Positions 11,335 to 58,048 of a stretch of DNA of 64,000 nt are shown here, in pieces. Position 1 is the first letter of the stretch; each line of letters opens with the position of its first letter. Source of the stretch: a virus; IMG/VR virus record IMGVR_UViG_3300045988_122291, positions 32,001-96,000 of that record; one strand, written 5' to 3'. The position numbers and the translations under genes were made by a program. The notes beneath the pieces were generated by a model that had not been told where the DNA came from, searched no databases, and saw only the letters and a program-made list of their open reading frames with translations.

Positions 11335-11363
11335 ATTGTATCATGCTATTTAGTTCTTGTCAA
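11335..11363 (-). promoter_or_regulatory. sigma-A-type promoter (TTGACA-17-TGaTACAAT) abutting a 16-bp hairpin
   Basis: Minus strand: TTGACA (11358-11363), 17-nt spacer, TACAAT (11335-11340). Stem AATAAGTGTGTACTAA/TTAGTACACACTTATT starts inside the -10 box and is followed by TCTTTTAT. Confidence 0.55.
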
Positions 11364-21260: not shown

Positions 21261-21617
21261 TTAGAGAGAATTATAGCCAGAATTTTGTTTAACCAAATCT
21301 TGAATACCTTCTGACAGCACTTCATACATCATTTCTGCGTCATCAGTTGTCCAATATTCATCACGAATCCTGTATTTAACCACACAATCTACGCCATAAT
21401 TTGTTAGAGCATCTTTGAATTGCTTCGCTAATTCTTTGCCATATACTGCTGGTTCGCCCATAATGGTTTTCACGCCATCCTTAGGCACAGAAACATAGTA
21501 TGTTCCAGACAGTGAAGCGGTATAGTTACTGGGTTCTTGCTGTATATAAAGCCCCATTATATATGTTTTTACGATAGTGGAAGTAAGTTCTAAATCTTTT
21601 TGTTGCTTTTCGTTCAT
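21261..21617 (-). CDS. hypothetical protein
   Basis: Co-directional ORF immediately after the helicase. Confidence 0.4.
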   Translation of the reverse strand: MNEKQQKDLELTSTIVKTYIMGLYIQQEPSNYTASLSGTYYVSVPKDGVKTIMGEPAVYGKELAKQFKDALTNYGVDCVVKYRIRDEYWTTDDAEMMYEVLSEGIQDLVKQNSGYNSL

Positions 21618-31651: not shown

Positions 31652-32065
31652 TCATTGCTCAATCCTTTCTTCAGCCGTACCAAAGTTAGTAGTATAAACC
31701 ACCCTTTTAACACCCAAACTCTTAATCATTTTCATACACCCAGCGCACGGTCTTGCCATGCCATTCTCACCATCGCATTTTCTCTTACGAGCAATGTAGA
31801 CCGTTACTTTAGACCACTCAATTTCTTCGTTAAGCAGTGGAGCAAGCGCGTGTATCTCTGCATGAAGATAATGCGGTTTATCATCTTCTGGGAAACGCTC
31901 TCTATTATATTTCTTCTGCAAGGGATGAGTCTTGCAAGTATTGAACGCTGTGTTAAGCACCGTATTCTTCTGCGCCACTACACAGCCCATATGGTATCTA
32001 CCATAGTCACTGCAATCAGCAATAGACAAGGCATGAGCCAGCATTTTCTTGTCATTCTTGTTCAT
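31652..32065 (-). CDS. dCMP deaminase (cytidine/deoxycytidylate deaminase zinc motif)
   Basis: HAEIHAL ... PCAGCMKMI (H-A-E and PCxxC). Confidence 0.75.
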   Translation of the reverse strand: MNKNDKKMLAHALSIADCSDYGRYHMGCVVAQKNTVLNTAFNTCKTHPLQKKYNRERFPEDDKPHYLHAEIHALAPLLNEEIEWSKVTVYIARKRKCDGENGMARPCAGCMKMIKSLGVKRVVYTTNFGTAEERIEQ

Positions 32066-33750: not shown

Positions 33751-34104
33751 TTATGAGATTTCAAGTGTGCCATAAGAGATTTCACCATAATCACCCAGAG
33801 AAGATAATTTTACGTCTACTTTGATAGAGAAACCATACTCATTACCTGTAGTAAATTCTTTGATAATTAAATGAACACCACCATTTTGACATTGCATTAA
33901 AATATCACAAGTCTCTCCCGTATTAGACATGAGTTTCGGTGAAAGCAAAAATCGTGAATTGTAATAGTCTCTAATGTAAATATAGCTTGTAGCAGGAACA
34001 TAAAATTCTCTATAAAAATCAGACCCCATATACAAGTCGTCAATCTTCTTATAAATCATAGCCCCACTTGTTTTCTCAATTTTTCCAGCTACAATCGCGT
34101 TCAT
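33751..34104 (-). CDS. hypervariable small protein, MNGIVTGK family, copy A (dispersed)
   Basis: MNAIVAGKIEKTSGAMIYKK N-terminus and ..GTLEIS C-terminus are shared with the array copies. A poly-G leader precedes it. Confidence 0.6.
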   Translation of the reverse strand: MNAIVAGKIEKTSGAMIYKKIDDLYMGSDFYREFYVPATSYIYIRDYYNSRFLLSPKLMSNTGETCDILMQCQNGGVHLIIKEFTTGNEYGFSIKVDVKLSSLGDYGEISYGTLEIS

Positions 34105-34185
34105 CGTACCACCTCCTTAGAGATGACACGGTTTACGTTACTGTGAAATGCCCCCCCCAAGTGAGCGCATAGTTTGGTAATTCAT
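34105..34185 (-). promoter_or_regulatory. leader cassette A: SD-led uORF 34138..34185 (MNYQTMRSLGGGISQ) containing G8 (34151-34158)
   Basis: AAAGGAGAAAATATT-ATG. With G8 the uORF stops at TAA 34138-34140. With G7 or G10 it reads ...SKEVVR and stops at a TGA overlapping the ATG of copy A (ATGA at 34101-34104). Confidence 0.6.
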
Positions 34186-34204: not shown

Positions 34205-34486
34205 TTAATCTTTCTTAGGCGTAGTATAAGACTTAGCGTTTTCACTGTCGCCCATACCAAGAACACCATTTTGTGTAGTCGGGTCAACAAGTGCGTTCCA
34301 TACGTTGACACAGACAAGGAAGAGACAGTAAGGATTACTGATAGTACCCTTCAGCACGTTGAGCACGCCTGCCCATGTGGTCAAATCTGCCGCTGTTAGA
34401 CCTGCGTAAGCAAGTGCAGTAGCGAATGCACCAAGAATTACATTTACCCAAAACGCATAGTTTTTAATTCTCACCTTTAGATTCAT
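34205..34486 (-). CDS. holin (LL-H / phage_holin_4-like)
   Basis: Three hydrophobic segments and a polar tail ..DPTTQNGVLGMGDSENAKSYTTPKKD. Lies immediately downstream of the endolysin with an ATGA-type junction. Confidence 0.65.
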   Translation of the reverse strand: MNLKVRIKNYAFWVNVILGAFATALAYAGLTAADLTTWAGVLNVLKGTISNPYCLFLVCVNVWNALVDPTTQNGVLGMGDSENAKSYTTPKKD

Positions 34487-36210
34487 TACTCTTCACTCCC
34501 ATACATACCCACTCTATCGTTAATAACAAGAACTCGTAGCAAATCTTCACTTAGGTCAAGACCCTTGCCATTACCCTTGAGATAGCCCTTATTCACGAGC
34601 TTAATGATAGTGTCCTTACCCCAGTCTGGAACTGAAGCAATGCTATCATATACCTTATTGTACTTAGCGTACACTTCTTCAGCTACATTGCCAGCAACCT
34701 TCTTAGCTTCGGTCTGAGCAATAGCTGTGGTTTCTGCTTTAGTCAAATCTTCCACTCCTTTAACCATGTTTAGGAAATTAGTCCACTGTTCATAATGTCG
34801 CACGAAGGGGTCTGGACAATTACCTACAATAAATGTTTTTGTACCTTGGCGCACAAGAATATATCCTGTTGGCACACTTACACAAGACACTTTAGTTGTA
34901 CGAGTTTTTACACTCTTCTGAACACCACCAATACTATAATTAGCTGTTAAGCGATCAATAGCAAGATAATCATAACGAGTGCTTCTACCTAATCGTGTTT
35001 TGTTAGTACGATACCCCTTAGTCGCGCAAACAGCTTGTACAACGTCTAAGTTATTTTGAATAGAAGAAGTATAAAGATGTCCTGCTTCGCAACCGTCTAC
35101 TTGTAAACATTCGTTCCAAAATACGTCATATTGGTGTTGATTCATTTCCAATAAATTATATTGGAAATGCTTATCTTTAAGCCACTGTTCACACCAATAG
35201 TAAAGGTCTGTGCCATAATTACGGTAACTTACACTACCATCTTTCTTGTTAGAAACAGTATAGTCAATCATTAGGTTATCAAGAATCTCTTTAACTCTAT
35301 CAATCTTGCGTTGTTTCTTAACATGAAACTCAATGCCACATACATCTTGGTAAGTTCCCTTCATATAATGTCCGTCACCTTGTACCCATACAAGGAATCG
35401 AATTTCATCATCAGTGAGAGGTAAACCAGACCCAATATACATAGCACCGTTTTTAACTAAGTTTTGTCGAGAGCCTGTAAGCATATCTCCCCATAGTTGC
35501 TCACGCCATTTATATGTTCCAGTCTTTTTATTAAAATTATTGTTTGCCGCCCACATACGATGATTAGAAGTTGCTTCAAGACCATGACAGCTTAGAACTT
35601 CAGCTTCATAAGGCTCAACCACGCTACTAACAGCGCCAAAAGATAGTCTATCAGTATTAGTGTCATACTGCATAACTTCTTCTCCAACCTTAATATCTCC
35701 AAGAGCCTTCCAACCTTCGCGTGTTAGAAGTTCGGTTGAATCCAAAGGTAAACAATACTTATGTGTAACATGATAGTGCATACATACATGCTTAATATCA
35801 ACCCCATACTGTTCCATAAGCCATTGCACGAGCTTTACAGTACGCTTCTGGGTTTCCATAGTAATTACATATTCGCCATTCTTCCAGTCGCTGCACATTT
35901 CAATACCAATGGAATTAACGTTGCGACAGCTATTGTAATAATAGCCTGTTTCACTACCACAATGCCATGCAGTATTAGCAAGGTTTACAGTCTGCCAAAT
36001 TTCGTTCTCATCAACAAAGAAATGTGCGCTTGCATTAAGCCCACTACAACGAGCAAAATAATCTGCATTGTTCTTTGCAGTATCGCCCTTGCCAGCAGTA
36101 AAGTGAATAACAATCCATTGAATCTTATGCTTTACGCCATTCTTTGTGCGACCATACATAAAATTGGAAGGATTGCATTCCTTAAATTGAAAATATGGTT
36201 TTTCTGCCAT
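34486..36210 (-). CDS. N-acetylmuramoyl-L-alanine amidase endolysin (Amidase_2/PGRP) interrupted by an intein; SLH-like C-terminus
   Basis: WIVIHFTAG, AHFFVD, AWHCG, NSIGIEMC and H-x5-K-x-C split as HYHVTHKY|intein|CPDPF. The C-terminal VPDWGKDTIIKLVNKGYLKGNG..LSEDLLRVLVI looks SLH-like. Confidence 0.75.
   Translation of the reverse strand: MAEKPYFQFKECNPSNFMYGRTKNGVKHKIQWIVIHFTAGKGDTAKNNADYFARCSGLNASAHFFVDENEIWQTVNLANTAWHCGSETGYYYNSCRNVNSIGIEMCSDWKNGEYVITMETQKRTVKLVQWLMEQYGVDIKHVCMHYHVTHKYCLPLDSTELLTREGWKALGDIKVGEEVMQYDTNTDRLSFGAVSSVVEPYEAEVLSCHGLEATSNHRMWAANNNFNKKTGTYKWREQLWGDMLTGSRQNLVKNGAMYIGSGLPLTDDEIRFLVWVQGDGHYMKGTYQDVCGIEFHVKKQRKIDRVKEILDNLMIDYTVSNKKDGSVSYRNYGTDLYYWCEQWLKDKHFQYNLLEMNQHQYDVFWNECLQVDGCEAGHLYTSSIQNNLDVVQAVCATKGYRTNKTRLGRSTRYDYLAIDRLTANYSIGGVQKSVKTRTTKVSCVSVPTGYILVRQGTKTFIVGNCPDPFVRHYEQWTNFLNMVKGVEDLTKAETTAIAQTEAKKVAGNVAEEVYAKYNKVYDSIASVPDWGKDTIIKLVNKGYLKGNGKGLDLSEDLLRVLVINDRVGMYGSEE
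34819..35754 (-). mobile_element. intein (312 aa, residues 153-464) with LAGLIDADG-type homing endonuclease domain
   Basis: Starts CLPLDSTELLTREGW (block A Cys). Block B ATSNHRMW. LAGLIDADG-like FLVWVQGDGHY and ECLQVDGCEAG. Ends TKTFIVGN followed by the +1 Cys (TGT 34816-34818). Confidence 0.65.
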
Positions 36211-36229: not shown

Positions 36230-36261
36230 AAGATAAAAGGGGAGAATATATCTCCCCTTAT
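36230..36261 (-). terminator. intrinsic terminator between the paralog operon and the endolysin gene
   Basis: Minus strand: AAGGGGAGA-TATAT-TCTCCCCTT followed by TTATCTT. Confidence 0.6.
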
Positions 36262-36267
36262 TTCAAA

Positions 36268-36471
36268 TTAAAGACCGTTATCAGCAAGTAGCTTGCGATA
36301 ATCAGCGGACAGGAGAGTTGCGCCAGTCTTTTCCTCGCGCCACTTAATGTAGACCGCACGTGCGAGGTCATCACGAGGAATGTTGTGCTTGTTGTCCCAC
36401 TGGTCGAGCTGTACACCAATGTCACCGGGGAGCTTTGCGATGTGTCGATGTTGTAGTTTGTAATTGTACAT
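36268..36471 (-). CDS. hypothetical protein
   Basis: Preferred ATG at 36471 after AAAGGAGAAG. Confidence 0.4.
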   Translation of the reverse strand: MYNYKLQHRHIAKLPGDIGVQLDQWDNKHNIPRDDLARAVYIKWREEKTGATLLSADYRKLLADNGL

Positions 36472-36502
36472 ATTTTTTTCTTCTCCTTTGTTTGCTTGAT
36501 TT

Positions 36503-36898
36503 TTATTCAAAGTAGCCTATTTCAATTTTATCAAAATAGTCACTCAAATAACCACTTAAACTTCTAATGTGTATTTCATCTCGGTCGGAATTATACCAAA
36601 CTGAAAATAATGAGTAATTTTGCCTCGGATAGTTTTTGGGTGATACATAGAAATTATTTTCTTTGTCATCGCTACTAATATCTCCCATAAAATTAGTGGG
36701 GAAAATAATAACTTCTTTTCCATCTGAAGTTTCTCTGTAAAATCTAAAAAGAATATTGTTTTTCGGCGTGCGATATAAATTTGTATTGTATAGCGTTAAA
36801 TTGTAATCATTCGGCATATTCCATGATTGTGTTACATGAAACACCATAGTGTCTCCGACACTTTTAGTTTCCTGTTTATTAGTGACAATAGCATTCAT
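36503..36898 (-). CDS. hypervariable small protein, MNGIVTGK family, copy H (no leader of its own)
   Basis: MNAIVTNKQETKSVGDTMVF... ends ..KIEIGYFE. Follows copy B after TAA-19 nt-ATG with SD AGGCGGTGA. Confidence 0.55.
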   Translation of the reverse strand: MNAIVTNKQETKSVGDTMVFHVTQSWNMPNDYNLTLYNTNLYRTPKNNILFRFYRETSDGKEVIIFPTNFMGDISSDDKENNFYVSPKNYPRQNYSLFSVWYNSDRDEIHIRSLSGYLSDYFDKIEIGYFE

Positions 36899-36917
36899 AC
36901 TGTCACCGCCTTTGAAG

Positions 36918-37220
36918 TTACTTTATGGAAATTCGATAGAATTTTGCATTTAATCCTTCTCTGTTGTTTGTTGCCCCCATTATATTTCCATTTTCGAAAT
37001 ATAAATGAACCGATGGTGCGTCTGGACTGACAGAAAAAGTTTTTCCGTCCCATTTTCCAATAGAGAAATCGTAACTGTAAAGAATATAAACACAAGGGTC
37101 GTTCGCTTTTGGTGTTTCTATTACTGTTCCATGGTATTCTATCCAAAAAGAACTGTTGTACACTATTTCGAACTCTTTGCTTGTTCCTAATCCAATGGGC
37201 AAAGTAATAATTCCGTTCAT
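36918..37220 (-). CDS. hypervariable small protein, MNGIVTGK family, copy B (shortened N-terminal motif)
   Basis: Only MNGIITLPIG of the family motif is retained. Preceded by leader cassette B. Confidence 0.5.
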   Translation of the reverse strand: MNGIITLPIGLGTSKEFEIVYNSSFWIEYHGTVIETPKANDPCVYILYSYDFSIGKWDGKTFSVSPDAPSVHLYFENGNIMGATNNREGLNAKFYRISIK

Positions 37221-37286
37221 TTACTCTGCCCCCCCCAGTTTAATCTGAAGAATGCTCATTGCTCAAATTCCTTTCTGAGCAATGAG
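37221..37286 (-). promoter_or_regulatory. leader cassette B: uORF 37221..37259 (MSILQIKLGGAE) with G8 (37229-37236); its ATG lies in an 11-bp hairpin
   Basis: CTCATTGCTCA-GAAAGGAATT-TGAGCAATGAG hairpin (37255-37286). The uORF stop TAA (37221-37223) abuts ATG 37220. With G7 the stop would become ATGA-overlapping. Confidence 0.5.
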
Positions 37287-37291
37287 AAGGT

Positions 37292-37666
37292 TTATTCAAA
37301 AGTGCCGATTTCTACTGAAGAAAGGTTATTTCTCATTTTAAAATTATCAGAAACTCCCAAAGCAAGTCTTATGCTGGGGTCTGAATATTTTTTTACAACC
37401 TCTACCCAATCTGCTTCGTTAGGCGAAAGATATGTCGCAATCGTCGAACTGTCGTTATCTACCATTACAAAGCGCATTGAAATATAAGCTACTCTGTCAC
37501 CAAAAGATTCTATTTTTAAGAAATAAGGTGGCTCAAGATAAGAAGTATTTGGCACATAAAAATACATGAGTGCAGTTGCTTCTGTAGGAACACTGCCTAC
37601 TAAAGCAGTTTTCCATACCAAACTTCCAGCCTGTTTCTCTTGCTTACCAGTCACAATACCGTTCAC
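37292..37666 (-). CDS. hypervariable small protein, MNGIVTGK family, copy C (GTG start)
   Basis: (GTG)NGIVTGKQEKQAGSLVWK... ends ..VEIGTFE. Confidence 0.6.
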   Translation of the reverse strand: MNGIVTGKQEKQAGSLVWKTALVGSVPTEATALMYFYVPNTSYLEPPYFLKIESFGDRVAYISMRFVMVDNDSSTIATYLSPNEADWVEVVKKYSDPSIRLALGVSDNFKMRNNLSSVEIGTFE

Positions 37667-37818
37667 TCTTGTGCACCTTCTTTCGGTGCATACTTCTCAT
37701 TGCTCAAATAATTTAGTGGGAGACTATGCCCCCCCCCAGTTGAAACTGAGGTTGACTTACAAATACACATTTTTGTGTCTCCTTTGTTATGTGTTGTTTG
37801 TAATTTGAGCAATGGGAA
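37663..37818 (-). promoter_or_regulatory. leader cassette C: uORF 37663..37770 (35 aa) with G9 (37729-37737), in the coupled (ON) frame
   Basis: ACAAAGGAGACACAAAA-ATG. MCICKSTSVSTGGGHSLPLNYLSNEKYAPKEGAQE. The TGA overlaps the GTG start (GTGA). SD hairpin TGCACC-GAAAGAA-GGTGCA (37672-37690). Flanking arms CATTGCTCAAAT/ATTTGAGCAATG (37803-37814 and 37698-37709). Confidence 0.65.
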
Positions 37819-37821
37819 GGG

Positions 37822-38178
37822 TTAAGAAAATAATTCAAAACCTAAATTACTATATTCATTAGTAGTAATAGTATTGGTATTGAAATTTATGGTAAGCGTT
37901 GCAACTGAAGAGCTACCTATGCCATTAAGAGTGATAACCGATTGTTTATAAATAGCCCCTGTTTCATATCCAGAACTGCTATTTATAACAATCGCATATT
38001 TCTCTTGAGGAAAAATCACACAATAGGTCGTATAATAACTACGATATGTTTCAGTAGCAATAACTGAATATTTATCTATATCAGTAATCGTTGCATTACC
38101 ATTGTAGTATTGCCGAACAGCAGAAGTTGGCACTTTACCACCAGTTGTTTCAATCTTACCCGTTACAATTCCGTTCAT
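37822..38178 (-). CDS. hypervariable small protein, MNGIVTGK family, copy D
   Basis: MNGIVTGKIETTGGKVPTS... ends ..LGFELFS. Confidence 0.6.
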   Translation of the reverse strand: MNGIVTGKIETTGGKVPTSAVRQYYNGNATITDIDKYSVIATETYRSYYTTYCVIFPQEKYAIVINSSSGYETGAIYKQSVITLNGIGSSSVATLTINFNTNTITTNEYSNLGFELFS

Positions 38179-38332
38179 CCAACAGCACCAACTTTCTTCA
38201 GTGCTGTTCCATTGCTCAAATTAAAGTTTAGGAGAATGCTAACGCATTGCCCCCCCCCAACTGAAGTCAGGGTTGACTGAATGTTAAACATAAATGTTCT
38301 CCTTTTGTATAGTTTTTATTTGAGCAATGGAA
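38175..38332 (-). promoter_or_regulatory. leader cassette D: uORF 38175..38291 (38 aa) with G9 (38250-38258), in the coupled (ON) frame
   Basis: CAAAAGGAGAACATTT-ATG. MFNIQSTLTSVGGGQCVSILLNFNLSNGTALKKVGAVG. The TGA overlaps the ATG (ATGA). Hairpin AACAGCAC..GTGCTGTT (38181-38208). Flanking 15-nt arms at 38318-38332 and 38207-38221. Confidence 0.65.
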
Positions 38333-38337
38333 GGGAA

Positions 38338-38691
38338 TTACCAATAAATGAAAACTGCCATATTCGTTCCGACATATGTTAATGTCATTGCTGAGAAATC
38401 GACAGTATACAATGCTGAAGTTGAAGTAGCGGGAGAATAAAAAGTATAGACAGTATCGGTAATTATTTTTCTATCTTCCCAATCAACGGGTTGAGGGAGA
38501 TATATGATATATTTTCCTTGTGGATATATCTCATAGCATCCGTGCGAACTTATATATGTTCTAATGCACCTTAATTTAGATATATCGAAAGGAGAATTTG
38601 TTTTATCAATAACAGGTCTTTCTATGCTTGTAGGCACAGTATCACTTATACTTTGCTTTTCTTCAATTTTACCGCTAACAATCCCATTCAT
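38338..38691 (-). CDS. hypervariable small protein, MNGIVTGK family, copy E
   Basis: MNGIVSGKIEEKQSISDT... Confidence 0.6.
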   Translation of the reverse strand: MNGIVSGKIEEKQSISDTVPTSIERPVIDKTNSPFDISKLRCIRTYISSHGCYEIYPQGKYIIYLPQPVDWEDRKIITDTVYTFYSPATSTSALYTVDFSAMTLTYVGTNMAVFIYW

Positions 38692-38838
38692 ACAGTCACC
38701 TGCTTTCGGTGACTAACATTGCTCAAAAAGGACTTTCGCCCTATTAGGAAGTTATTGCCCCCCCCAAGTGAAACATAAGTTCACTCAGAGAAAACTTGAT
38801 ACGCATGGTATCACTCCTTGTTATTTAATTGAGCAACG
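38692..38838 (-). promoter_or_regulatory. leader cassette E: uORF 38744..38806 (MRIKFSLSELMFHLGGAITS) with G8 (38758-38765), uncoupled (OFF) frame
   Basis: CAAGGAGTGATACC-ATG. With G9 it would read ...GGGNNFLIGRKSFLSNVSHRKQVTV and stop at a TGA overlapping ATG 38691 (ATGA). SD hairpin GTCACC-GAAAGCA-GGTGAC (38695-38713). Flanking arms at 38829-38838 and 38717-38726 with one G-U. Confidence 0.65.
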
Positions 38839-38860
38839 TGTGTGAAGGGTGGTTAAGTGG

Positions 38861-39202
38861 TTAGGAAATTTCGAGAATGCCAAGTTCTAATGAGTTCATA
38901 CATTCGCTAAAAGGAATGAAACGTGAAGCAGAATTAGTTCGAACCATACAAGCGCCTTGCCACTGGCTACAATAAATGTTGTCTGGTAAATCCAGTGTTA
39001 TGTGCCTTTCATCATCTCGCGAAATCACGAAATTTTTCACGCAAATTAAAGTAATATTATTACTTTTATCTATAATACGAATATACTTCAAAGCATTATA
39101 GTCAAAAGTAAAATTTGATTGACTTAAATCAATCGACTGTTCACTCTTAAACACCATACTACCAGCAGTCTTTTCAATCTTGCCAGTTACTATACCATTC
39201 AT
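38861..39202 (-). CDS. hypervariable small protein, MNGIVTGK family, copy F
   Basis: ATG at 39202 (the track starts at GTG 39205). MNGIVTGKIEKTAGSMVFK... ends ..LGILEIS. Confidence 0.6.
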   Translation of the reverse strand: MNGIVTGKIEKTAGSMVFKSEQSIDLSQSNFTFDYNALKYIRIIDKSNNITLICVKNFVISRDDERHITLDLPDNIYCSQWQGACMVRTNSASRFIPFSECMNSLELGILEIS

Positions 39203-39314
39203 CACAAGACCTCCTTTCGGAGGTTGCCAATCCTGTTGCTCAAAGGAAAGGCATTTCCAATCATTAGGTTAGAACAATGCCCCCCAAGTGAATGAGAGTT
39301 TTAGTCTTAATCAT
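39203..39314 (-). promoter_or_regulatory. leader cassette F: uORF 39264..39314 (MIKTKTLIHLGGIVLT) with G6 (39280-39285), uncoupled (OFF) frame
   Basis: TAAGGAGAATACAT-ATG. With G7 it would read ...GGHCSNLMIGNAFPLSNRIGNLRKEVL and stop at a TGA overlapping the start (UGAUG). SD hairpin ACCTCC-GAAA-GGAGGT (39209-39224). Confidence 0.65.
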
Positions 39315-39325
39315 ATGTATTCTCC

Positions 39326-39754
39326 TTACATATTGTCTACAATTTCGTGCATCTTATCTTCAAGATGAATCGCAACGAACGATAGTAACGCCCATGCACA
39401 ACAGAAGAATAGATTACACTGTCCAAAAAAGAAGGTAAACGGTAAGTGGCTGTAATCCCACACATCCATATGCAGGATGTTATTCAGCACTACACCAGTT
39501 AATCCTTCAAGAACTGTGATAACCACGGTTCCAATTACTACTTGTTGCCATTGCTTGAATTGGTGTTTTCCTTCGTTTAGCAGTCCTACAATAACGAAAC
39601 ATAGCCCGCCGAGAACTGCCATAGTCCAGTTGGTTGGTTTGCCTTTCCAAATGGTTTCGATGGCGAAGTAAAGCATACCACCCATCACACCAAACAGCGC
39701 ATGGACAAGTATTGAATTTAGTTTATGCTTCATAGCTTTAAGCCAACTTAGCAA
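39326..39754 (-). CDS. integral membrane protein (about 4 TM)
   Basis: Four hydrophobic helices. Lies directly upstream of the paralog array in the same operon. Confidence 0.5.
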   Translation of the reverse strand: MLSWLKAMKHKLNSILVHALFGVMGGMLYFAIETIWKGKPTNWTMAVLGGLCFVIVGLLNEGKHQFKQWQQVVIGTVVITVLEGLTGVVLNNILHMDVWDYSHLPFTFFFGQCNLFFCCAWALLSFVAIHLEDKMHEIVDNM

Positions 39755-40418
39755 GCATAGCGTCCATCTGAGCCTTTGCAGAAGCCAATACCTTAACTTC
39801 TTGTTCTGCCAGCTTACCAGTTAGTTCAGTTGCAAGGGTTACTGCCTTAACAGCGTCCTTATCTTCACAGCTATTTACATACTGTTTTAGCAAGTTACCG
39901 TGTGTAGTCAGCTTAGTGATGAGCGTTTGCATACTCACGTACAAGCTGACAATATCAGCCTTTGGATAAATTACACATTCCTTGCCGTCAGCATGGTAAG
40001 GAAATTCTTCAACGCCCATAACAACTGCATTAAAGATATTACCAATGTTGGCTTGGTCGTTTGCTGTTAGGCTGAAATGTTCATCACCATAAGAAGTCTT
40101 AACGTCAACGCCAGCATAAATAGTTTGCTCAACTGAATTGTTAAGAGAATTGATAACTTGACCACGAAGTTCTTCAATAGTCGGCTCATAAGGAGTAGGA
40201 GCTTCTTCCTTGTCCCAGTGAACCGTATTACCTACGCATTCCCAAATCTTATAATCTGACTTCTTGAGAGTGCAAAGTTCTTCGTCAATGTCAGTGACAA
40301 ATCGAATTGTATCACCAAGTTCAATATCATGAACCTTATCAAGCGTAATGTAGCAACGTTCGGAATTGATGATACCTTCTACATTTTCATATGTTTTCTT
40401 ATTAGTAATTAGTTTCAT
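39738..40418 (-). CDS. DUF4376-like (tail-fiber-associated domain) protein
   Basis: The central segment INSLNNSVEQTIYAGVDVKTSYGDEHFSLTANDQANIGNIFN resembles the DUF4376 domain of fiber and fiber-assembly proteins (from memory). Confidence 0.4.
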   Translation of the reverse strand: MKLITNKKTYENVEGIINSERCYITLDKVHDIELGDTIRFVTDIDEELCTLKKSDYKIWECVGNTVHWDKEEAPTPYEPTIEELRGQVINSLNNSVEQTIYAGVDVKTSYGDEHFSLTANDQANIGNIFNAVVMGVEEFPYHADGKECVIYPKADIVSLYVSMQTLITKLTTHGNLLKQYVNSCEDKDAVKAVTLATELTGKLAEQEVKVLASAKAQMDAMLAKLA

Positions 40419-40816
40419 TAAACTACCTCACCTACTACTTGAACAGTAAAATCTACTGAAGGCTTTGTAGAGCCAGAAGTTCTTAGAGTCAAAGTATTCG
40501 TACCTGTTGTGCCGTAATCTGCAAGCAATGCAAATGCAGTTTTCTGATTAGCCGCCGCTGTTGCGTCAGAACTCGGCAGAAGATAAATAATTGGCTGATA
40601 GCGCATATTGATAGCAAGACCACTAATTGTTTGTGTTTGCTGATAAACACCGCCACTTGAACTCCAACCACCAGAATAGAAAGTAGCTGTACCAAAAACG
40701 GTCTTGCCTACTTCAAGGTTTTGTCGTGCGCCTTGGGCAGTTGTTGCACCAGTGCCACCGTCAGGGATTGGAACAGGGTAAACGTAACCTTGCCCTGTTA
40801 TTGCTCCATAACCCAT
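40418..40816 (-). CDS. short tail-fiber-like protein
   Basis: The N-terminal PIPDGGTGATTAQGARQNLEVG motif is characteristic of phage fiber N-termini. Confidence 0.45.
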   Translation of the reverse strand: MGYGAITGQGYVYPVPIPDGGTGATTAQGARQNLEVGKTVFGTATFYSGGWSSSGGVYQQTQTISGLAINMRYQPIIYLLPSSDATAAANQKTAFALLADYGTTGTNTLTLRTSGSTKPSVDFTVQVVGEVV

Positions 40817-40870: not shown

Positions 40871-40899
40871 ATTATACCACATCCTTATACATTTGTCAA
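40871..40899 (-). promoter_or_regulatory. sigma-A-type promoter (TTGACA-17-TGgTATAAT) heading the fiber-like/paralog operon
   Basis: Consensus -35, 17-nt spacer, TG extension, consensus -10. Confidence 0.65.
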
Positions 40900-45152: not shown

Positions 45153-46262
45153 TTATGAATAAGCTATTTCAAGCCCTTTTTTCAAGATGTTAACACTTGC
45201 GTTAATATCTCTATCATGTTTAGTATGGCACTCAGGACACTCCCAAGTACGAACATCCAGATTCTTAACCAGAGGATTCTTGTAACCACAGTAGCTACAA
45301 GTCTGGCTACTTGGGTACATAGTAGGGACACTGATTACCGTATTACCATACCATTCACCTTTATACTTGAGCATAGCAAAGAATTTAGACCACGAAGCAC
45401 TTGCGATTGACCGCGCAAGATTATGATTACGCATCATACCTTTTACATTCAAGTCCTCTATGCAGATAGTTTGGTTTTCGCGTATCAGCATAGTTGACTG
45501 CTTTTGTAAAAAGTCATTTCTTTGATTAGTAATCTTTTCGTAGATACAAGCTAACTTAATACGTTGTTTATTACGATTGTTAGAGCCTAATTGCTTACGA
45601 GAAAGACCGCGCTGTGCTCTAATGAGTTTACGAGCAGATTTCTCTAAAAACTTTGGATTAGGAATTTTGTTACCGTTACTATCTGTATAGAAATCTTTAA
45701 TTCCCACATCAATACCAACAGTTCCATTTGCATTGTTCATAAGCTGTGGCTCAAAATCAACATTGAGAACTACGAAATATTTGCCAGACGGTGTTCTTTC
45801 AACAGTGACATTGTTAATATGCCCAACTTCCATAGATTGTTTAATTTTTATATATCCCAATTTAGGCAATCTAATATATTTCCCTACAATGCGAATAGTA
45901 TTTACATGGTTAATCGTTCTATAAGACTGATAATTGTTATGTTTATTCTTAAATTTTGGATATTTAGACTTTTTAGCAAAGAATTTTTTATAACCTTTAT
46001 CTAAATCTCTTAAAGATTGCTGCAGAGCAATAGAATCCAATTCTTTAAGAAAATTAAATTCTTCTTGTTGTTTAAGTGCCGTTAGCATGGCACAAGTTCC
46101 ACTATACCCAACACTAATGCCATTTTTATAGGAATCTCTACGCATAACCAGACCTTTATTATACACAAGTCTGCAACCGCCAAAAATTCGATTTATTAAA
46201 TTTTTCTGTGTTTTATTGGGATAGACCCTGAATTTAATACCTTTTTGCATATAATTTCCCAT
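45153..46262 (-). CDS. tnpB: TnpB (IS200/IS605-family RNA-guided endonuclease), no tnpA adjacent
   Basis: N-terminal [29 protein letters not shown]. RuvC D in [11 protein letters not shown] and E in [11 protein letters not shown]. Zinc finger CSYCG..CPECH followed by [10 protein letters not shown]. Confidence 0.85.
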
Positions 46263-47189: not shown

Positions 47190-48889
47190 TCATCATTGTC
47201 AGCAAGCGACCTAACTTTGCTTTTAGGCGTAATCTCATACTGTTGAATCATAGCTTGGGGATAATAACGACCGTTCCATTCGTTTGTATAAAGGGTTACT
47301 ATTGCTTCAAACGTAAACTTGTCATATTTTTCCCATTCAGCGGATTGTTCTTCGTTTAATCTAAACTTGATAAAATCTACGCCATAAGCACTGATTTTAC
47401 CTGTAGTTGTTTTCTTTCTAAATAGGCGAACCCAGTTCTGATAGCAAGTGAACTTAACATAGAATACTGGCTCAACAACACCGCTACCTGCGCTACCCCA
47501 CATATCTTTATATTCTTCACAGTTCATGCAGAGTGGAAGATTGATTTGCTGTGGAGACAACTTTGCTGTAACATCTATTGTATCACAAATCACATCATTT
47601 GTCAAGTGCGAATCGAGATATTTTAGAAGTTTTTTTAGATTGGCTTTAGGCATGATTAAGCCAGAAGCGCACTCATGACCTTCAGCTTTGGCAAGTCGTG
47701 ATTCATTGATAATATTTGCAATAGGAAATGGCGAACGCATACTACCAGAATATTGTGTGGGATTGACTGGACGTAAAATAAAAGCTGGCTTATTCACAAG
47801 TGATAGCATCTTGTTCGCTACCAGCCCAGTATAGTTAGCTTGTTCGTTCTTAATAAATCCGACAGTGGCTTTATGCTCGTTATCCATATCTTCGCTAACC
47901 TTAGACATAATCTCGTCTACAGTCTTACGTTGTTCGTTTACAGCCTTACGAAGAACGGCAATACCTTCAGCCATATCACGTTCACCAACAAGCGATTCAA
48001 AGAAAATGCGTTTGCTTTCTTGGTCATTACTACGGCATAAGGCATTGATTGGTGGAATACAGCCGAATGAAAAGCCATGTGGGTCTGTTTCACCCTTATA
48101 ATTTAGCGTTTGCACAAGTTCATTTAGTTCTGGTGCGTAGACAAGATTCTTAATTCCGTCTATAAAATACGCTCGGTTTTCAAGGCTTGTCATATTACAT
48201 ACATCACTAATTAGACTAACGGCGATAAAAGGTGTGTATTCTTGATAAATTTTAATCTCGGTATCTGGGTCTAAATAAAGTTCGCCATATCGCTCAATCA
48301 GCTTAAAGGTAACACCTGTACCTGATAAGGCTGTGTTTAGCCCAGTGCCAAGATGATGATTAACCACTGTGGCGTAGTTGTTGCTTGTGGGCGTGGTTTC
48401 ATGGTGGTCTACACAAATTGTATATACGCCATTTTCTTTCAGCGTCATACAAGGTTCATTGTCGCTTGACCCCGCGTCAGGAATGATTAGTAGCTTTGCG
48501 CCAGAATCAATAACTTGTTGTACTATGTTCTCGTTTGGTGCTCTCAAACCATGAGCCTTGCCTTCGTGATGAAAAACAATAAGATTGTCTTGTGGCACGT
48601 TGAGATATTCTTTTAGAAATTTGTAAATTATTGCGCCTGAACACTGACCATCGACATCGGAGTCAACTAAAATTGCAATTTTCCCACCGTTTTCAACCGC
48701 TGTCTTAATCTCAGCGCAAGCGACATCAATGTTAGGATAATCACCAGCATAATCATAGCAATAAGCCACATCACCATTGCCAGAGAGGTCGATATAATGC
48801 TCGACCTCTTCTTCATTTACACCGCAAGCAACAAGATATTCACGAATGAAATCTCCTGTAACCTTATTTAAGAGTGGGCGTACCTTCAT
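47171..48889 (-). CDS. DHH-family phosphoesterase / RecJ-like ssDNA exonuclease
   Basis: DHH motifs VDSDVDGQCSG, IIPDAGSSD and VDHHE. Confidence 0.65.
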   Translation of the reverse strand: MKVRPLLNKVTGDFIREYLVACGVNEEEVEHYIDLSGNGDVAYCYDYAGDYPNIDVACAEIKTAVENGGKIAILVDSDVDGQCSGAIIYKFLKEYLNVPQDNLIVFHHEGKAHGLRAPNENIVQQVIDSGAKLLIIPDAGSSDNEPCMTLKENGVYTICVDHHETTPTSNNYATVVNHHLGTGLNTALSGTGVTFKLIERYGELYLDPDTEIKIYQEYTPFIAVSLISDVCNMTSLENRAYFIDGIKNLVYAPELNELVQTLNYKGETDPHGFSFGCIPPINALCRSNDQESKRIFFESLVGERDMAEGIAVLRKAVNEQRKTVDEIMSKVSEDMDNEHKATVGFIKNEQANYTGLVANKMLSLVNKPAFILRPVNPTQYSGSMRSPFPIANIINESRLAKAEGHECASGLIMPKANLKKLLKYLDSHLTNDVICDTIDVTAKLSPQQINLPLCMNCEEYKDMWGSAGSGVVEPVFYVKFTCYQNWVRLFRKKTTTGKISAYGVDFIKFRLNEEQSAEWEKYDKFTFEAIVTLYTNEWNGRYYPQAMIQQYEITPKSKVRSLADNDDWRDLF

Positions 48890-51006: not shown

Positions 51007-51387
51007 TTATTCCAAAAATCCAAAAGTTAAAGATTTTAATAAACCAAAAGAAGAAGTTCCTGCTATATGTTGTTTCTCCCAATATATATCGTCATCATCA
51101 CGTGTCCGGAAGCGGTAAAATTTAATACTTTCATAAATTGAATCATTTTCACCCAAAAGTTCAAAAGAACCACCTACACTGAATGAATTTATAGACAGAT
51201 AAGTATATGCTATTCCTGTTGGTTGTTGCATACCTATTCTTAGCGTATATTTATAAAATCTTCCAACCAAATCATAATATCTTAATTCATACGGAGAGTT
51301 GTCATTCGCAACATCCCATACAGCAACTTCGTTAAATACCAAACTTCCGGCTGGCTTTTCCATTTTACCAGAGATAATTGCGTTCAT
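51007..51387 (-). CDS. hypervariable small protein, MNGIVTGK family, copy G (dispersed)
   Basis: MNAIISGKMEKPAGSLVFNE... ends ..LTFGFLE. Preceded by a poly-G leader. Confidence 0.6.
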   Translation of the reverse strand: MNAIISGKMEKPAGSLVFNEVAVWDVANDNSPYELRYYDLVGRFYKYTLRIGMQQPTGIAYTYLSINSFSVGGSFELLGENDSIYESIKFYRFRTRDDDDIYWEKQHIAGTSSFGLLKSLTFGFLE

Positions 51388-51465
51388 GCAATCACCTCCT
51401 TACTGCTTACAGCGTTAAGCCGTATGCCCCCCCCAAGTGGAAACAAAGTTTACTAATTTAAACAT
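51388..51465 (-). promoter_or_regulatory. leader cassette G: uORF 51415..51465 (MFKLVNFVSTWGGHTA) with G8 (51427-51434), uncoupled frame
   Basis: AAAGGAGGGCATTTTT-ATG. With G7 or G10 it would read ...WGGIRLNAVSSKEVIA and stop at a TGA overlapping ATG 51387 (ATGA). Confidence 0.6.
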
Positions 51466-56791: not shown

Positions 56792-58048
56792 TTATAATGC
56801 CCCACAAATTTTTCTCCTTTCAGTCAAAAACGAAGTTTTTGTACTTACAAAAAGAAGATTTTTATAATTTATAGAGCCATTATTTACTTTAATTCCTGTA
56901 AGATTCCGAATATCAAAATATCCACTGTTTCTTCTTCCGAAAACAAAATATTCTTCACCTTTGTATTTAACTTTATCAAATAATCTAAAACCTTTAACAA
57001 AATACGGTGCTTGATTGTTTTTTCTAAGCCCTCCTTTGTAAATTTTTTGCTTGTGTATTTTTCTGTTATGACATCTAACCTTTTTTTGAAAATAATAATA
57101 TCCAAGAGATTGTGCATTTGGATTACCACTAATACAACGAGCATCTATATAATGTCCTTTTGGTAAATTATGCGAAATTCTAACTCGCTTAGTAATATAT
57201 CCATAAGTTTCTTGCACACTTGAATATTTTTTCTTTAATTCAAGAATTAAAGTTTTCTTCATAACGTTCATAAAAGTAGCATCTCTAAAAGATTTTCCGC
57301 TACAAACTGTATTTGGTAATTTAATCAAACCTTTATGATAGTCTCTGTGACATGATTTGCATAAAGTAACTAAATTACTTGGAGAATTGCCACCAGTTTT
57401 GCGAGACTTAATATGATGAACATTTAAGATTTGGTCTTTAGACTTGCCTTTGCAACATTGACAAGTATGATTATCTCTAAATAATACATATTCTCTTACG
57501 TTCCAAAAGCCTTCTTGCTCTCCATGCTGATACTCTGTATTACTAATATTTGGATTTTTGAGTTTTTGAGTGTCAAAAGAAGCTACTTCAACAATTATAT
57601 TCTTGATAGGAAGAATGTGACAAATATTGTCAATAACTGTTAAATGTGTTTGTACCTTTTGCTTAACGCTCGGTGCTAACCACCCCTTCTTTTTTGAAGA
57701 AACGCGATTATTAAATCTTGGCTTTCGATACCTCGTTTTTCTATATCTTCGTGCTCTTCGACATTCTTTTCGAGAAGAAAGCAAATTAACAATATCATTT
57801 CTCAACTCGATTTCTGCTTCATACATTACTTTTGTTTGAGTAGAAGCAGATGCTCCAATATACTTGCTCCCTGCATCAATTCCCAAACTAATATTTTGAA
57901 CATATTTAGTAGAATTATACAAAAGTTGTATAACAAATGGACATCGTTTTATTACTTTAGCTTTTCCTTCTTTTAGCAAACGTCTAACTTTACCATGTCT
58001 GGAAGTAGGCATAAGGGGATTGCCTTGAGCGTCTAAAACATAAACCAT
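56792..58048 (-). CDS. iscB: IscB (OMEGA-family RNA-guided nuclease: PLMP, RuvC and HNH)
   Basis: MVYVLDAQGNPLMPTSRHGKVRRLLKEGKAKVIKRCPFVIQL (PLMP/RRXRR N-terminus). RuvC-I LGIDAGSKYIG. HNH CQCCKG..LNVHHIKSRKTGGNSPSNLVTLCKSCH. 418 aa. Confidence 0.8.
   Translation of the reverse strand: MVYVLDAQGNPLMPTSRHGKVRRLLKEGKAKVIKRCPFVIQLLYNSTKYVQNISLGIDAGSKYIGASASTQTKVMYEAEIELRNDIVNLLSSRKECRRARRYRKTRYRKPRFNNRVSSKKKGWLAPSVKQKVQTHLTVIDNICHILPIKNIIVEVASFDTQKLKNPNISNTEYQHGEQEGFWNVREYVLFRDNHTCQCCKGKSKDQILNVHHIKSRKTGGNSPSNLVTLCKSCHRDYHKGLIKLPNTVCSGKSFRDATFMNVMKKTLILELKKKYSSVQETYGYITKRVRISHNLPKGHYIDARCISGNPNAQSLGYYYFQKKVRCHNRKIHKQKIYKGGLRKNNQAPYFVKGFRLFDKVKYKGEEYFVFGRRNSGYFDIRNLTGIKVNNGSINYKNLLFVSTKTSFLTERRKICGAL

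Follow-up and report, generated by a model that had tools for sequence, protein, structure and literature searches.

How does a phage that carries a row of variant genes determine which of them are expressed? The question is raised by a 64,000-nucleotide (nt) stretch of viral DNA (positions 32,001 to 96,000 of IMG/VR virus record IMGVR_UViG_3300045988_122291), here called the window, in which six tandem genes for variants of one small protein (paralogs F, E, D, C, B, and H) occupy positions 36503 to 39325. An earlier interpretation made without database searches, the sequence-only reading, proposed that five of the six are each preceded by a cassette with a poly-G tract inside a short leader open reading frame (ORF) and that individual paralogs are switched stochastically. 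Here, that proposal is followed up by computational analysis of the window and its relatives. We think it likely that the array is a set of phage contingency loci acting by translational coupling. Coordinates are those of the window, and the paralogs, cassettes, and operon features described all lie on the minus strand.

Long G runs are confined to leader ORFs upstream of paralogs

The window has a G+C content of 38% and contains seven runs of six or more G or C residues, beginning at 34151, 37229, 37729, 38250, 38758, 39280, and 51427. All seven read as C on the plus strand, that is, as G6 to G9 on the mRNA, all share the flanking pattern CA(C/A)(T/C)T-Gn-CA, and each lies upstream of a paralog; no other G or C run of at least six was found elsewhere in the window. 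The count bears out what the sequence-only reading had noticed by eye, namely, that such runs occur in a single context and on the mRNA-sense strand (7/7), and the scattered runs that would have spoken against a contingency locus were absent from the window outside the cassettes.

The paralog family has eight members in the window, 100 to 131 amino acids (aa) in length, six in tandem and two dispersed. The tandem members are F (38861 to 39202, 113 aa), E (38338 to 38691, 117 aa), D (37822 to 38178, 118 aa), C (37292 to 37666, 124 aa, with a GTG start), B (36918 to 37220, 100 aa, divergent in sequence), and H (36503 to 36898, 131 aa), the last of which has no tract of its own. We designate the dispersed members X1 (33751 to 34104, 117 aa) and X2 (51007 to 51387, 126 aa). 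Every tract was found inside a short leader ORF with an AAGGAG-type Shine-Dalgarno (SD) sequence and an ATG, in agreement with the earlier description.

To determine where each leader ends, leader reading was simulated at tract lengths from n-3 to n+3. In every cassette (7/7), the leader in exactly one frame, which we define as ON, ends on a TGA overlapping the start codon of the paralog (GTGA in C and F, ATGA in the others). The remaining two frames, which we define as OFF, stop 22 to 69 nt upstream of the paralog start, cassette B being a special case described below. A leader-paralog fusion does not arise in any frame; the tract resides in a separate ORF, outside the paralog coding sequence.

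As sequenced, D and C are ON. Leader D (38175 to 38291, 38 aa; G9 at 38250 to 38258) ends on a TGA that overlaps the paralog ATG, and leader C (37663 to 37770, 35 aa; G9 at 37729 to 37737) ends on one that overlaps the paralog GTG. F, E, X1, and X2 are OFF. Leader F (39264 to 39314; G6 at 39280 to 39285; ON at G4 or G7) is 16 aa long as sequenced and would reach 37 aa, ending on GTGATG, at G7, and leader E (38744 to 38806; G8 at 38758 to 38765; ON at G6 or G9) is 20 aa long and would reach 39 aa, ending on ATGA, at G9. The leaders of X1 (34138 to 34185, 15 aa; G8 at 34151 to 34158) and X2 (51415 to 51465, 16 aa; G8 at 51427 to 51434) would both be ON at G7 or G10. Leader B (37221 to 37259, 12 aa; G8 at 37229 to 37236) ends as sequenced on a TAA that directly abuts the B ATG.

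Dinucleotide shuffles of the tract-to-start segment gave a chance of ~7e-5 that the six long cassettes would all have an open coupling frame, and of 2.5e-7 when early closure of both other frames was also required, products that overstate independence because cassettes F, E, D, and C share a common ancestry. That a single step separates each OFF tract from an ON length was dropped as an argument, as it holds for any three-frame system and carries no information.

Hairpins are predicted to mask the paralog starts

Structures over the paralog starts were assessed by folding each sequence individually and by comparison with a control gene set. Every paralog except B is preceded by a predicted hairpin of -9 to -16 kcal/mol that ends 1 to 6 nt before the start and holds an SD-like GGTG or GGAGG in its 3′ arm. 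The predicted hairpins sequester the GGAGG of F (39204 to 39236, -12.7 kcal/mol), the GGTG of E (38693 to 38715, -11.7 kcal/mol), the SD sequences of D (38181 to 38208, -13.7 kcal/mol) and C (37672 to 37690, -9.5 kcal/mol), both the SD and the ATG of H (10 bp, 36881 to 36907, -13.2 kcal/mol), and the GGAGG of X1 (11 bp, 34105 to 34130, -13.2 kcal/mol). The stem sequence varies by cassette type (CCTCC/GGAGG, GTCACC/GGTGAC, ACAGCAC/GTGCTGT, TGCACC/GGTGCA, CAGTGCC/GGTGCTG, or CGTGTCATCTC/GAGGTGGTACG) while its position is constant. In related contigs, pairing is kept through wobble changes, one 12-nt loop insertion is tolerated, and one-sided changes in the X1 hairpin leave pairing intact. The median predicted fold energy of the paralog initiation regions was -11.5 kcal/mol, compared to -4.5 kcal/mol for 33 other SD-bearing genes of the window (Mann-Whitney p=3e-4). 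The leader initiation regions are weakly structured in five of seven cassettes (-0.1 to -4.7 kcal/mol), the exceptions being B and X2.

The cassettes also carry a TTGAGCAA(T/C) element, which has an upstream inverted partner in E, D, C, and B. In E, D, and C, CATTGCTCAA(AT) and its complement are predicted to form a 10- to 13-bp long-range stem around the leader SD, ATG, and tract. Its 5′ and 3′ arms lie at 38829 to 38838 (CGTTGCTCAA) and 38717 to 38726 (TTGAGCAATG) in cassette E, at 38320 to 38329 (CATTGCTCAA) and 38210 to 38219 in cassette D, and at 37805 to 37814 and 37698 to 37707 in cassette C. In cassette B, the inverted repeat instead folds locally, as a hairpin that covers the leader SD and ATG (37257 to 37284; -18 kcal/mol over the initiation region). 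The element, the hairpin over the paralog SD or start, and the local hairpin of B had been described in the sequence-only reading, and these were found, as was the inverted partner. Because the 3′ arm follows both OFF-frame stops, only ON-frame ribosomes would cross it; the 5′ arm starts 6 to 8 nt past the stop codon of the preceding paralog in cassettes D, C, and B. The long-range stem may insulate each switch from its neighbor, or it may tie the switch to translation of the upstream gene. It is not essential to the switch, as X1, X2, and window F have no 5′ arm. RNAalifold analysis of 18 cassettes recovered the long-range inverted repeat and missed the SD hairpin, as a result of misalignment of the cassette types in that region.

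Cassette B opens a stop-free path to paralog H

Cassette B differs from the others in that none of its frames ends far upstream. At G7 or G10, the leader stops on a TGA that overlaps the B ATG, and at G8 it abuts that ATG. At G9, the leader stays open for 121 codons (36895 to 37259), crosses B from end to end in frame +2, and stops on a TGA that overlaps the H ATG. We define this reading path as the bridge frame. The sequence-only reading had placed H outside the control of any tract, a view that the bridge frame corrects: through the tract of B, at G9, H is within reach. Frame +2 of B contains no stop codon, compared to 10 to 18 in its seven window paralogs and 7 to 21 in about 35 paralogs at other loci, and codon shuffling rarely reproduced a stop-free frame (P<5e-5).

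A second case was found in a distant relative, L006 (IMG/VR UViG_3300045988_114464; related loci are designated by L numbers), in which a B-type tract is followed by an unrelated gene of 107 aa. Frame +2 of that gene is likewise stop-free (P<5e-5), and its bridge stops at the ATGA of the paralog that follows. The existence of stop-free overlapping frames in two independent cases is difficult to account for if ribosomes do not use them. Of the internal evidence that ribosome delivery from upstream matters, the bridge frames are the strongest.

As a separate observation, L006 carries two G8 tracts in series within one leader (L006:3554-4360). Tract 1 would decide access to tract 2, and tract 2 would pick the 107-aa gene or the next paralog; the frame classes at the two tracts combine in nine ways, six of which are OFF.

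The bridge frame also bears on a different account of the leaders. Short leader ORFs with consecutive identical codons and alternative hairpins resemble leader-peptide attenuation, and the leaders could be classical attenuators in which stalling on rare GGG (Gly) codons, set by charged tRNA-Gly or another signal, remodels the hairpins and exposes the SD. Attenuation would leave the stop-free frame across B without a use. Moreover, in four of the seven window cassettes the leader as sequenced stops 30 to 64 nt ahead of the paralog start and does not reach the hairpin, conservation of the ON frame extends to cassettes that use another frame, and tract length is polymorphic, as described below. 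We consider attenuation very unlikely.

Tract length differs between otherwise identical cassettes

Nineteen related loci were compared, and tracts were counted in 64 cassette instances from 16 contigs; two of the loci, L004 (sample SRR1761705) and L005 (from ERZ1749166), have the same sequence as the window. Tract lengths, which are assembly consensus values compared between samples and not within one population, ranged from G5 to G10 with a mode of G8, and the instances comprised 18 ON, 45 OFF, and one abutting state. Cassettes identical outside the tract were found in differing states in contigs from different samples (types c10, c29, c30, and c31). In the slot of a 140-aa paralog, the tract is G7 in L012, G8 in L013 and L017, and G9, which is ON, in L014 to L016, L018, and L019. 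Otherwise identical cassettes in the C-type slot carry G8, G9 (ON), or G10, and those in the D-type slot carry G7 or G8. The ON frame is kept in every cassette type, including a type with a TTG start, in which the overlap is TTGA. The contingency-locus interpretation of the sequence-only reading, which had named invariant tract lengths across related genomes as grounds for rejection, is thus supported, as tract lengths vary among otherwise identical cassettes in relatives and the predicted states vary with them.

Homopolymers are error prone, and contig L005 starts inside a tract; conceivably, the tract lengths are sequencing or assembly errors and the leaders are chance ORFs in the spacers of duplicated genes. 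We regard such an artifact as extremely improbable. Independently assembled contigs from several studies, with coverage of up to 354x (ERZ1034899), have the tracts at orthologous positions. Chance would produce the frame logic with a probability of no more than 7e-5, and the bridge frames occur in two unrelated gene bodies at P<5e-5 each.

Another possibility is that the tract is fixed and that slippage takes place at the level of RNA polymerase or of the ribosome, by frameshifting on GGG, giving a constant low ON fraction to which DNA length differences are incidental. The three-frame architecture would suit such a mechanism equally well, and G8 to G9 is within the length range of reported polymerase slippage. 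RNA polymerase slippage is best documented, however, on A/T runs and not on G runs, and the DNA tract length, and hence the state, differs between otherwise identical cassettes. DNA-level and RNA- or ribosome-level slippage are not mutually exclusive, and we consider the latter unlikely as the sole explanation.

A model for switching by translational coupling

The cassettes combine the properties of two known classes of element. Like simple sequence repeat (SSR) contingency loci, they carry a repeat (G6 to G9) that is polymorphic in length between samples. Like sites of termination-reinitiation coupling, they have overlapping stop and start codons (ATGA, GTGA, or TTGA; TAA-ATG in B at G8) and, in the predicted folds, a downstream initiation site masked by structure.

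In the model that we favor, the ribosome-binding site of each paralog would be locked in its hairpin, and the leader ORF upstream, with a strong and mostly unstructured SD and ATG, would contain the tract. Slipped-strand mispairing at DNA replication would lengthen or shorten the tract by one G and change the leader frame. In the ON frame, the leader ribosome would cross the 3′ arm of the inverted repeat and the hairpin and end on the TGA that overlaps the paralog start; termination there would unmask the site and permit termination-reinitiation on the paralog. In either OFF frame, the ribosome would stop 22 to 69 nt upstream and the hairpin would remain closed. A B-type cassette would route ribosomes to B in two frames and, in the third, by way of the stop-free overlapping frame, to the ATGA of H. 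Seven independent tracts would produce a population with many combinations of expressed paralogs, a form of bet-hedging. The sequences themselves show the anatomy, the frame logic, the structured initiation regions, and the DNA-level tract polymorphism between samples; in the model, slippage would in addition be frequent within a population, and coupling would control protein output.

Several points weigh against this model. The SD of X2 is less clearly sequestered than those of the other paralogs, and the hairpins might permit substantial independent initiation, in which case the cassettes would be modulators and not ON/OFF switches. RNA polymerase slippage on G8 to G9 could blur the states. 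Coupling assigns no role to the long-range inverted repeat. To these are added the shared descent of four cassettes, which inflates the shuffle probabilities, and the consensus nature of the tract lengths.

A more elaborate form of the coupling model is possible, although we find it doubtful: the array would be a ribosome-routing switchboard that chooses which masked cistron is served, the cistrons encoding exchangeable receptor-binding tips that dock through their shared N-terminal peptide on a single fiber/Tfa module. On the same doubtful footing, the stop-free frame would be kept for this purpose, and the serial tracts of L006 would form a decision tree. If this were true, one phage genotype would give rise to progeny with many host-range combinations.

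Cassettes mark recombination joints

Across the lineage, the cassette types are conserved, whereas a given slot holds different gene bodies in different phages. The F cassette of the window (39202 to 39325) is a hybrid with its junction precisely at the poly-G tract: the 5′ half corresponds to the cassette that precedes the 131-aa first paralog in L001 to L003, L009, L010, and L012 to L019, and the 3′ half corresponds to the F-type cassette. The position of the junction at the tract indicates that one paralog was deleted there. The 131-aa paralog of the relatives, which has a TTG start (MNGIIQKIAEEKD), is missing from the window by comparison with L012:5340-5450 and L010; in L001 to L003, the tract of its cassette is interrupted (G-A-GGGGGG). 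We conclude from the conserved cassette types, the differing bodies, and the hybrid that cassettes act as recombination joints.

The same features could indicate that the cassettes are DNA recombination elements (invertons, integron attC-like elements, or elements like miniature inverted-repeat transposable elements) bounded by the CATTGCTCAA/TTGAGCAATG repeat, with the G run as a passenger. The 10- to 13-bp inverted repeat does flank the leader segment in E, D, and C, with a local hairpin in B, and conserved cassette types, differing bodies, and an F hybrid at the tract would all be expected. Nevertheless, none of the 64 instances in the 16 contigs is inverted and no C run occurs on the sense strand; as no opposite-strand tract was found in any of the 19 related loci, the cassettes do not invert. 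Moreover, no recombinase gene was found in the operon, X1, X2, and window F show the full switch logic without a 5′ arm, and the cassettes keep their spacing to the paralog start to the exact nucleotide. The mosaicism needs no more than homologous recombination at conserved linkers, and we judge dedicated recombination elements highly improbable.

The paralogs form a small orphan family

The paralogs share an N terminus, MN[GA]I[VI]xGKxEK, and a C terminus of the form phi-G-x-phi-E. A family profile compared to all window ORFs matched exactly the eight paralogs; ORF 21261-21617, a borderline hidden Markov model (HMM) match (E value of 0.011), was rejected as a paralog on reading of its sequence. 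The shared termini had been recognized in the sequence-only reading, which took the bodies in between to be unrelated. The first part holds and the second does not, as HMM matches cover the full length and two paralogs gave similar all-beta models. Synonymous sites appear, by reading, to be free to vary in the conserved N-terminal codons, and we conclude that the N-terminal peptide is constrained as protein and not as DNA.

The HMM and structure searches gave no significant family or fold match. No significant match to the paralogs was found in Pfam or PHROGs, nothing significant was found by Rfam over 33 to 52 kb of the window or by megablast of 15 kb against GenBank phages, and no family member was found by tblastn of one member against GenBank phages or in a scan of GTDB genomes. 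A search of IMG/VR for the family returned one locus only. Among 1.8 billion representatives, the family comprises 86 clusters at 50% identity, all metagenomic and all stand-alone proteins of ~100 to 146 aa. By these searches, the paralogs constitute a small orphan family.

The first structure model of a paralog (predicted local distance difference test [pLDDT] score of 76.6) matched the tip of T7 gp17 without significance (E value of 0.12, template modeling score of 0.40), and a BFVD fold search of a paralog gave a best E value of 0.014, also not significant. The model of paralog C (pLDDT score of 88.4) is an all-beta domain with no significant match in the PDB (best E value of 0.04). The weak top matches include fiber tips and tailspikes (E values of 0.04 to 0.12). 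As no fold search gave a significant match, no fold family is assigned.

The operon context hints at host recognition

The array lies in an operon headed by a sigma-A-type promoter, TTGACA-17-TG-TATAAT, that matches the consensus at 12/12 positions (40871 to 40899). The order of genes is a 132-aa tail-fiber-like protein (40418 to 40816; phrog_11393, E value of 9e-4), a 226-aa Tfa-like tail-fiber assembly chaperone (39738 to 40418; phrog_1348, 7e-9), a 142-aa membrane protein (39326 to 39754; PF06541), the stop codon of which overlaps the SD of leader F, the array itself, and an 80-aa gene (36268 to 36510). A terminator-like hairpin with a T run (36237 to 36259) closes the operon after the 80-aa gene. 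The promoter type is common to the array operon and the replication genes.

The 226-aa protein is tentatively assigned to DUF4376 by homology: it gave no hit to Pfam PF14301 (DUF4376), while its 77%-identical homologue P0153 scored 25.6 bits against a cutoff of 25 and P0229 scored 34.2 bits. DUF4376 is a domain of the Mu U/Tfa tail-fiber chaperones (PMC7882524, PMC10579305). The 226-aa protein is conserved, with more than 140 clusters, many of them on contigs of 100 to 114 kb. When profiles were compared, the paralog family showed no relation to its 132-aa or 226-aa neighbor.

The fiber-like gene and the Tfa-like chaperone are hints that point to host recognition. That the paralogs are exchangeable host-recognition modules is, in our estimation, plausible yet tentative, and an intracellular role, e.g., in anti-defense, is possible. 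Separately, the motif G[AIVL][IV][TS]G[KQR] occurs among window ORFs only in four paralogs and the 132-aa fiber-like protein (40805 to 40816), in each case at residues 3 to 4; the N terminus of the fiber-like protein, MGYGAITGQ, resembles that of the paralogs. The motif may be a shared docking peptide, and it is only a lead because the pattern was defined after the sequences had been seen.

Other window genes encode a DnaB-like helicase, a primase, a RecJ-like exonuclease, a 1,309-aa DNA polymerase III alpha subunit, a holin, an amidase endolysin, and tail proteins. The nearest cultured relatives are phages of Enterocloster bolteae such as PMBT24, with 39% identity in the polymerase, and the lineage looks common in human gut metagenomes.

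Relationship to known switches

SSR phase variation in bacteria (opa, lgt, and pilC of Neisseria; lic and lex2A-lex2B of Haemophilus) uses slippage to set the reading frame and turn genes ON or OFF at combinations of loci. The proposed switch resembles these systems in that repeat slippage would change frame and state at many independent loci. Probably the nearest precedent among them for control from an upstream ORF is lex2A, a short ORF that carries the repeat and precedes lex2B. Unlike the bacterial loci, the cassettes described here belong to a virus and combine an overlapping stop and start with an SD-sequestering hairpin and, in B, a three-way router.

Host range can also be switched by site-specific DNA inversion, as in the G segment of Mu with Gin, the C segment of P1 with Cin, and shufflons. 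The likeness to the Mu and P1 modules lies in variable genes beside a tail fiber and a DUF4376/Tfa-type chaperone and in the predicted stochastic switching. The difference is that neither inversion nor an invertase was found here, and the paralogs are only candidates for fiber parts.

Coupling through masked sites is familiar from the MS2 coat gene, which controls lysis and replicase translation, from UGAUG and AUGA operon junctions, and from ermC-type leaders. Known coupling is either constitutive or controlled by physiology, whereas here a mutable DNA tract would decide whether the ribosome arrives. As in MS2 (PMC5934652) and ermC-type coupling, a ribosome-binding site closed by RNA structure would be opened by upstream translation, with overlapping stop and start codons. 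The literature search found no leader-ORF-coupled switch in phages or bacteria and no routing through overlapping frames.

Few cases of repeat slippage in phages are on record, and in all of them the tract lies inside the affected gene. The closest are the receptor-binding genes of the Fletchervirus phages of Campylobacter, which carry hypermutable poly-G tracts (Sorensen et al. 2021 Cell Rep 35:109214, as summarized in PMC12633550 and PMC12823448). They too have sense-strand G tracts of ~7 to 11 nt, several per genome, that switch variable host-interaction genes and give rise to subpopulations, an outcome that is predicted here. The Fletchervirus tract lies in the regulated coding sequence and a frameshift truncates the product, whereas the cassettes described here place the tract in a leader ORF of its own, so that no frameshift affects the regulated protein. 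Control here would instead depend on arrival of the leader ribosome at the paralog start, and the host clade (this being a gut Clostridia-type phage) and the protein family differ as well. Contingency loci in T2 and T4 are mostly A/T runs of at least 6 scattered through ordinary ORFs (Gomez, Barrick & Waters 2025 preprint, PMC12633550). They are similar in being phage homopolymers with reversible frameshift variants that are read as bet-hedging, and they differ in having no dedicated cassette, leader ORF, hairpin, or paralog array. Poly-G tracts have also been noted inside the affected ORF in BPP-1 and PB1-like phages (PMC12633550).

The cultured relative PMBT24 (L020/L021, OQ326496.2) has 11 G/C runs of at least 6, three of which share the flank ctaaaccgcttcccaactGn (record positions 47928, 78325 on the minus strand, and 73710 on the minus strand). 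These three lie inside the 5′ ends of paralogous ORFs that start M[SAP][IV]LNRFPTGGG, and all three are out of frame as deposited. A 285-aa ORF opens only at G11 (G10 in the record), and a 445-aa glycine-rich ORF that matches "minor tail protein" opens only at G8 (G9 in the record). A keyword search of the text of the PMBT24 genome paper found no mention of homopolymers, frameshifts, or phase variation.

The cassettes would represent a modular alternative to tracts within genes, in which the mutable tract sits in a small upstream ORF and expression follows by translational coupling. Because of that placement and that mode of control, the protein itself would never be damaged, and a single tract could also select one of two genes downstream. 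Should the paralogs function in host recognition, the array would be a new route to host-range bet-hedging by phages in the gut. The cassette would also offer synthetic biology a compact and portable design for a stochastic switch. The idea is testable because the lineage is related to cultured Enterocloster phages.

Other features of the genome

A near-consensus extended -10 promoter, TTGACA-17-TGnTACAAT, recurs between minus-strand gene blocks, with minus-strand examples at 11363, 21243, 23905, 25009, 31632, 33734, 44927, 47605, 50989, 53766, 60030, and 61920. X1 has one copy directly downstream and X2 has another downstream, and both paralogs therefore close their transcription units.

The amidase endolysin gene (34486 to 36210, minus strand) contains a precise insertion of 311 aa after Cys153, followed by Cys465. 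The insertion holds a LAGLIDADG-like LVWVQGDGHY motif and was not recognized by Pfam, and the L001 endolysin, which is 263 aa long and otherwise 90 to 96% identical, has no such insertion. The insertion therefore looks like an intein with a homing endonuclease. A TnpB/OrfB_IS605 gene with a Cas12f-like TNB domain (45153 to 46262, minus strand) lies inside the replication region, and a 418-aa HNH homing endonuclease is encoded at 56792 to 58048 (minus strand). Together, the putative intein, the TnpB gene, and the HNH gene suggest that the genome is rich in selfish elements.

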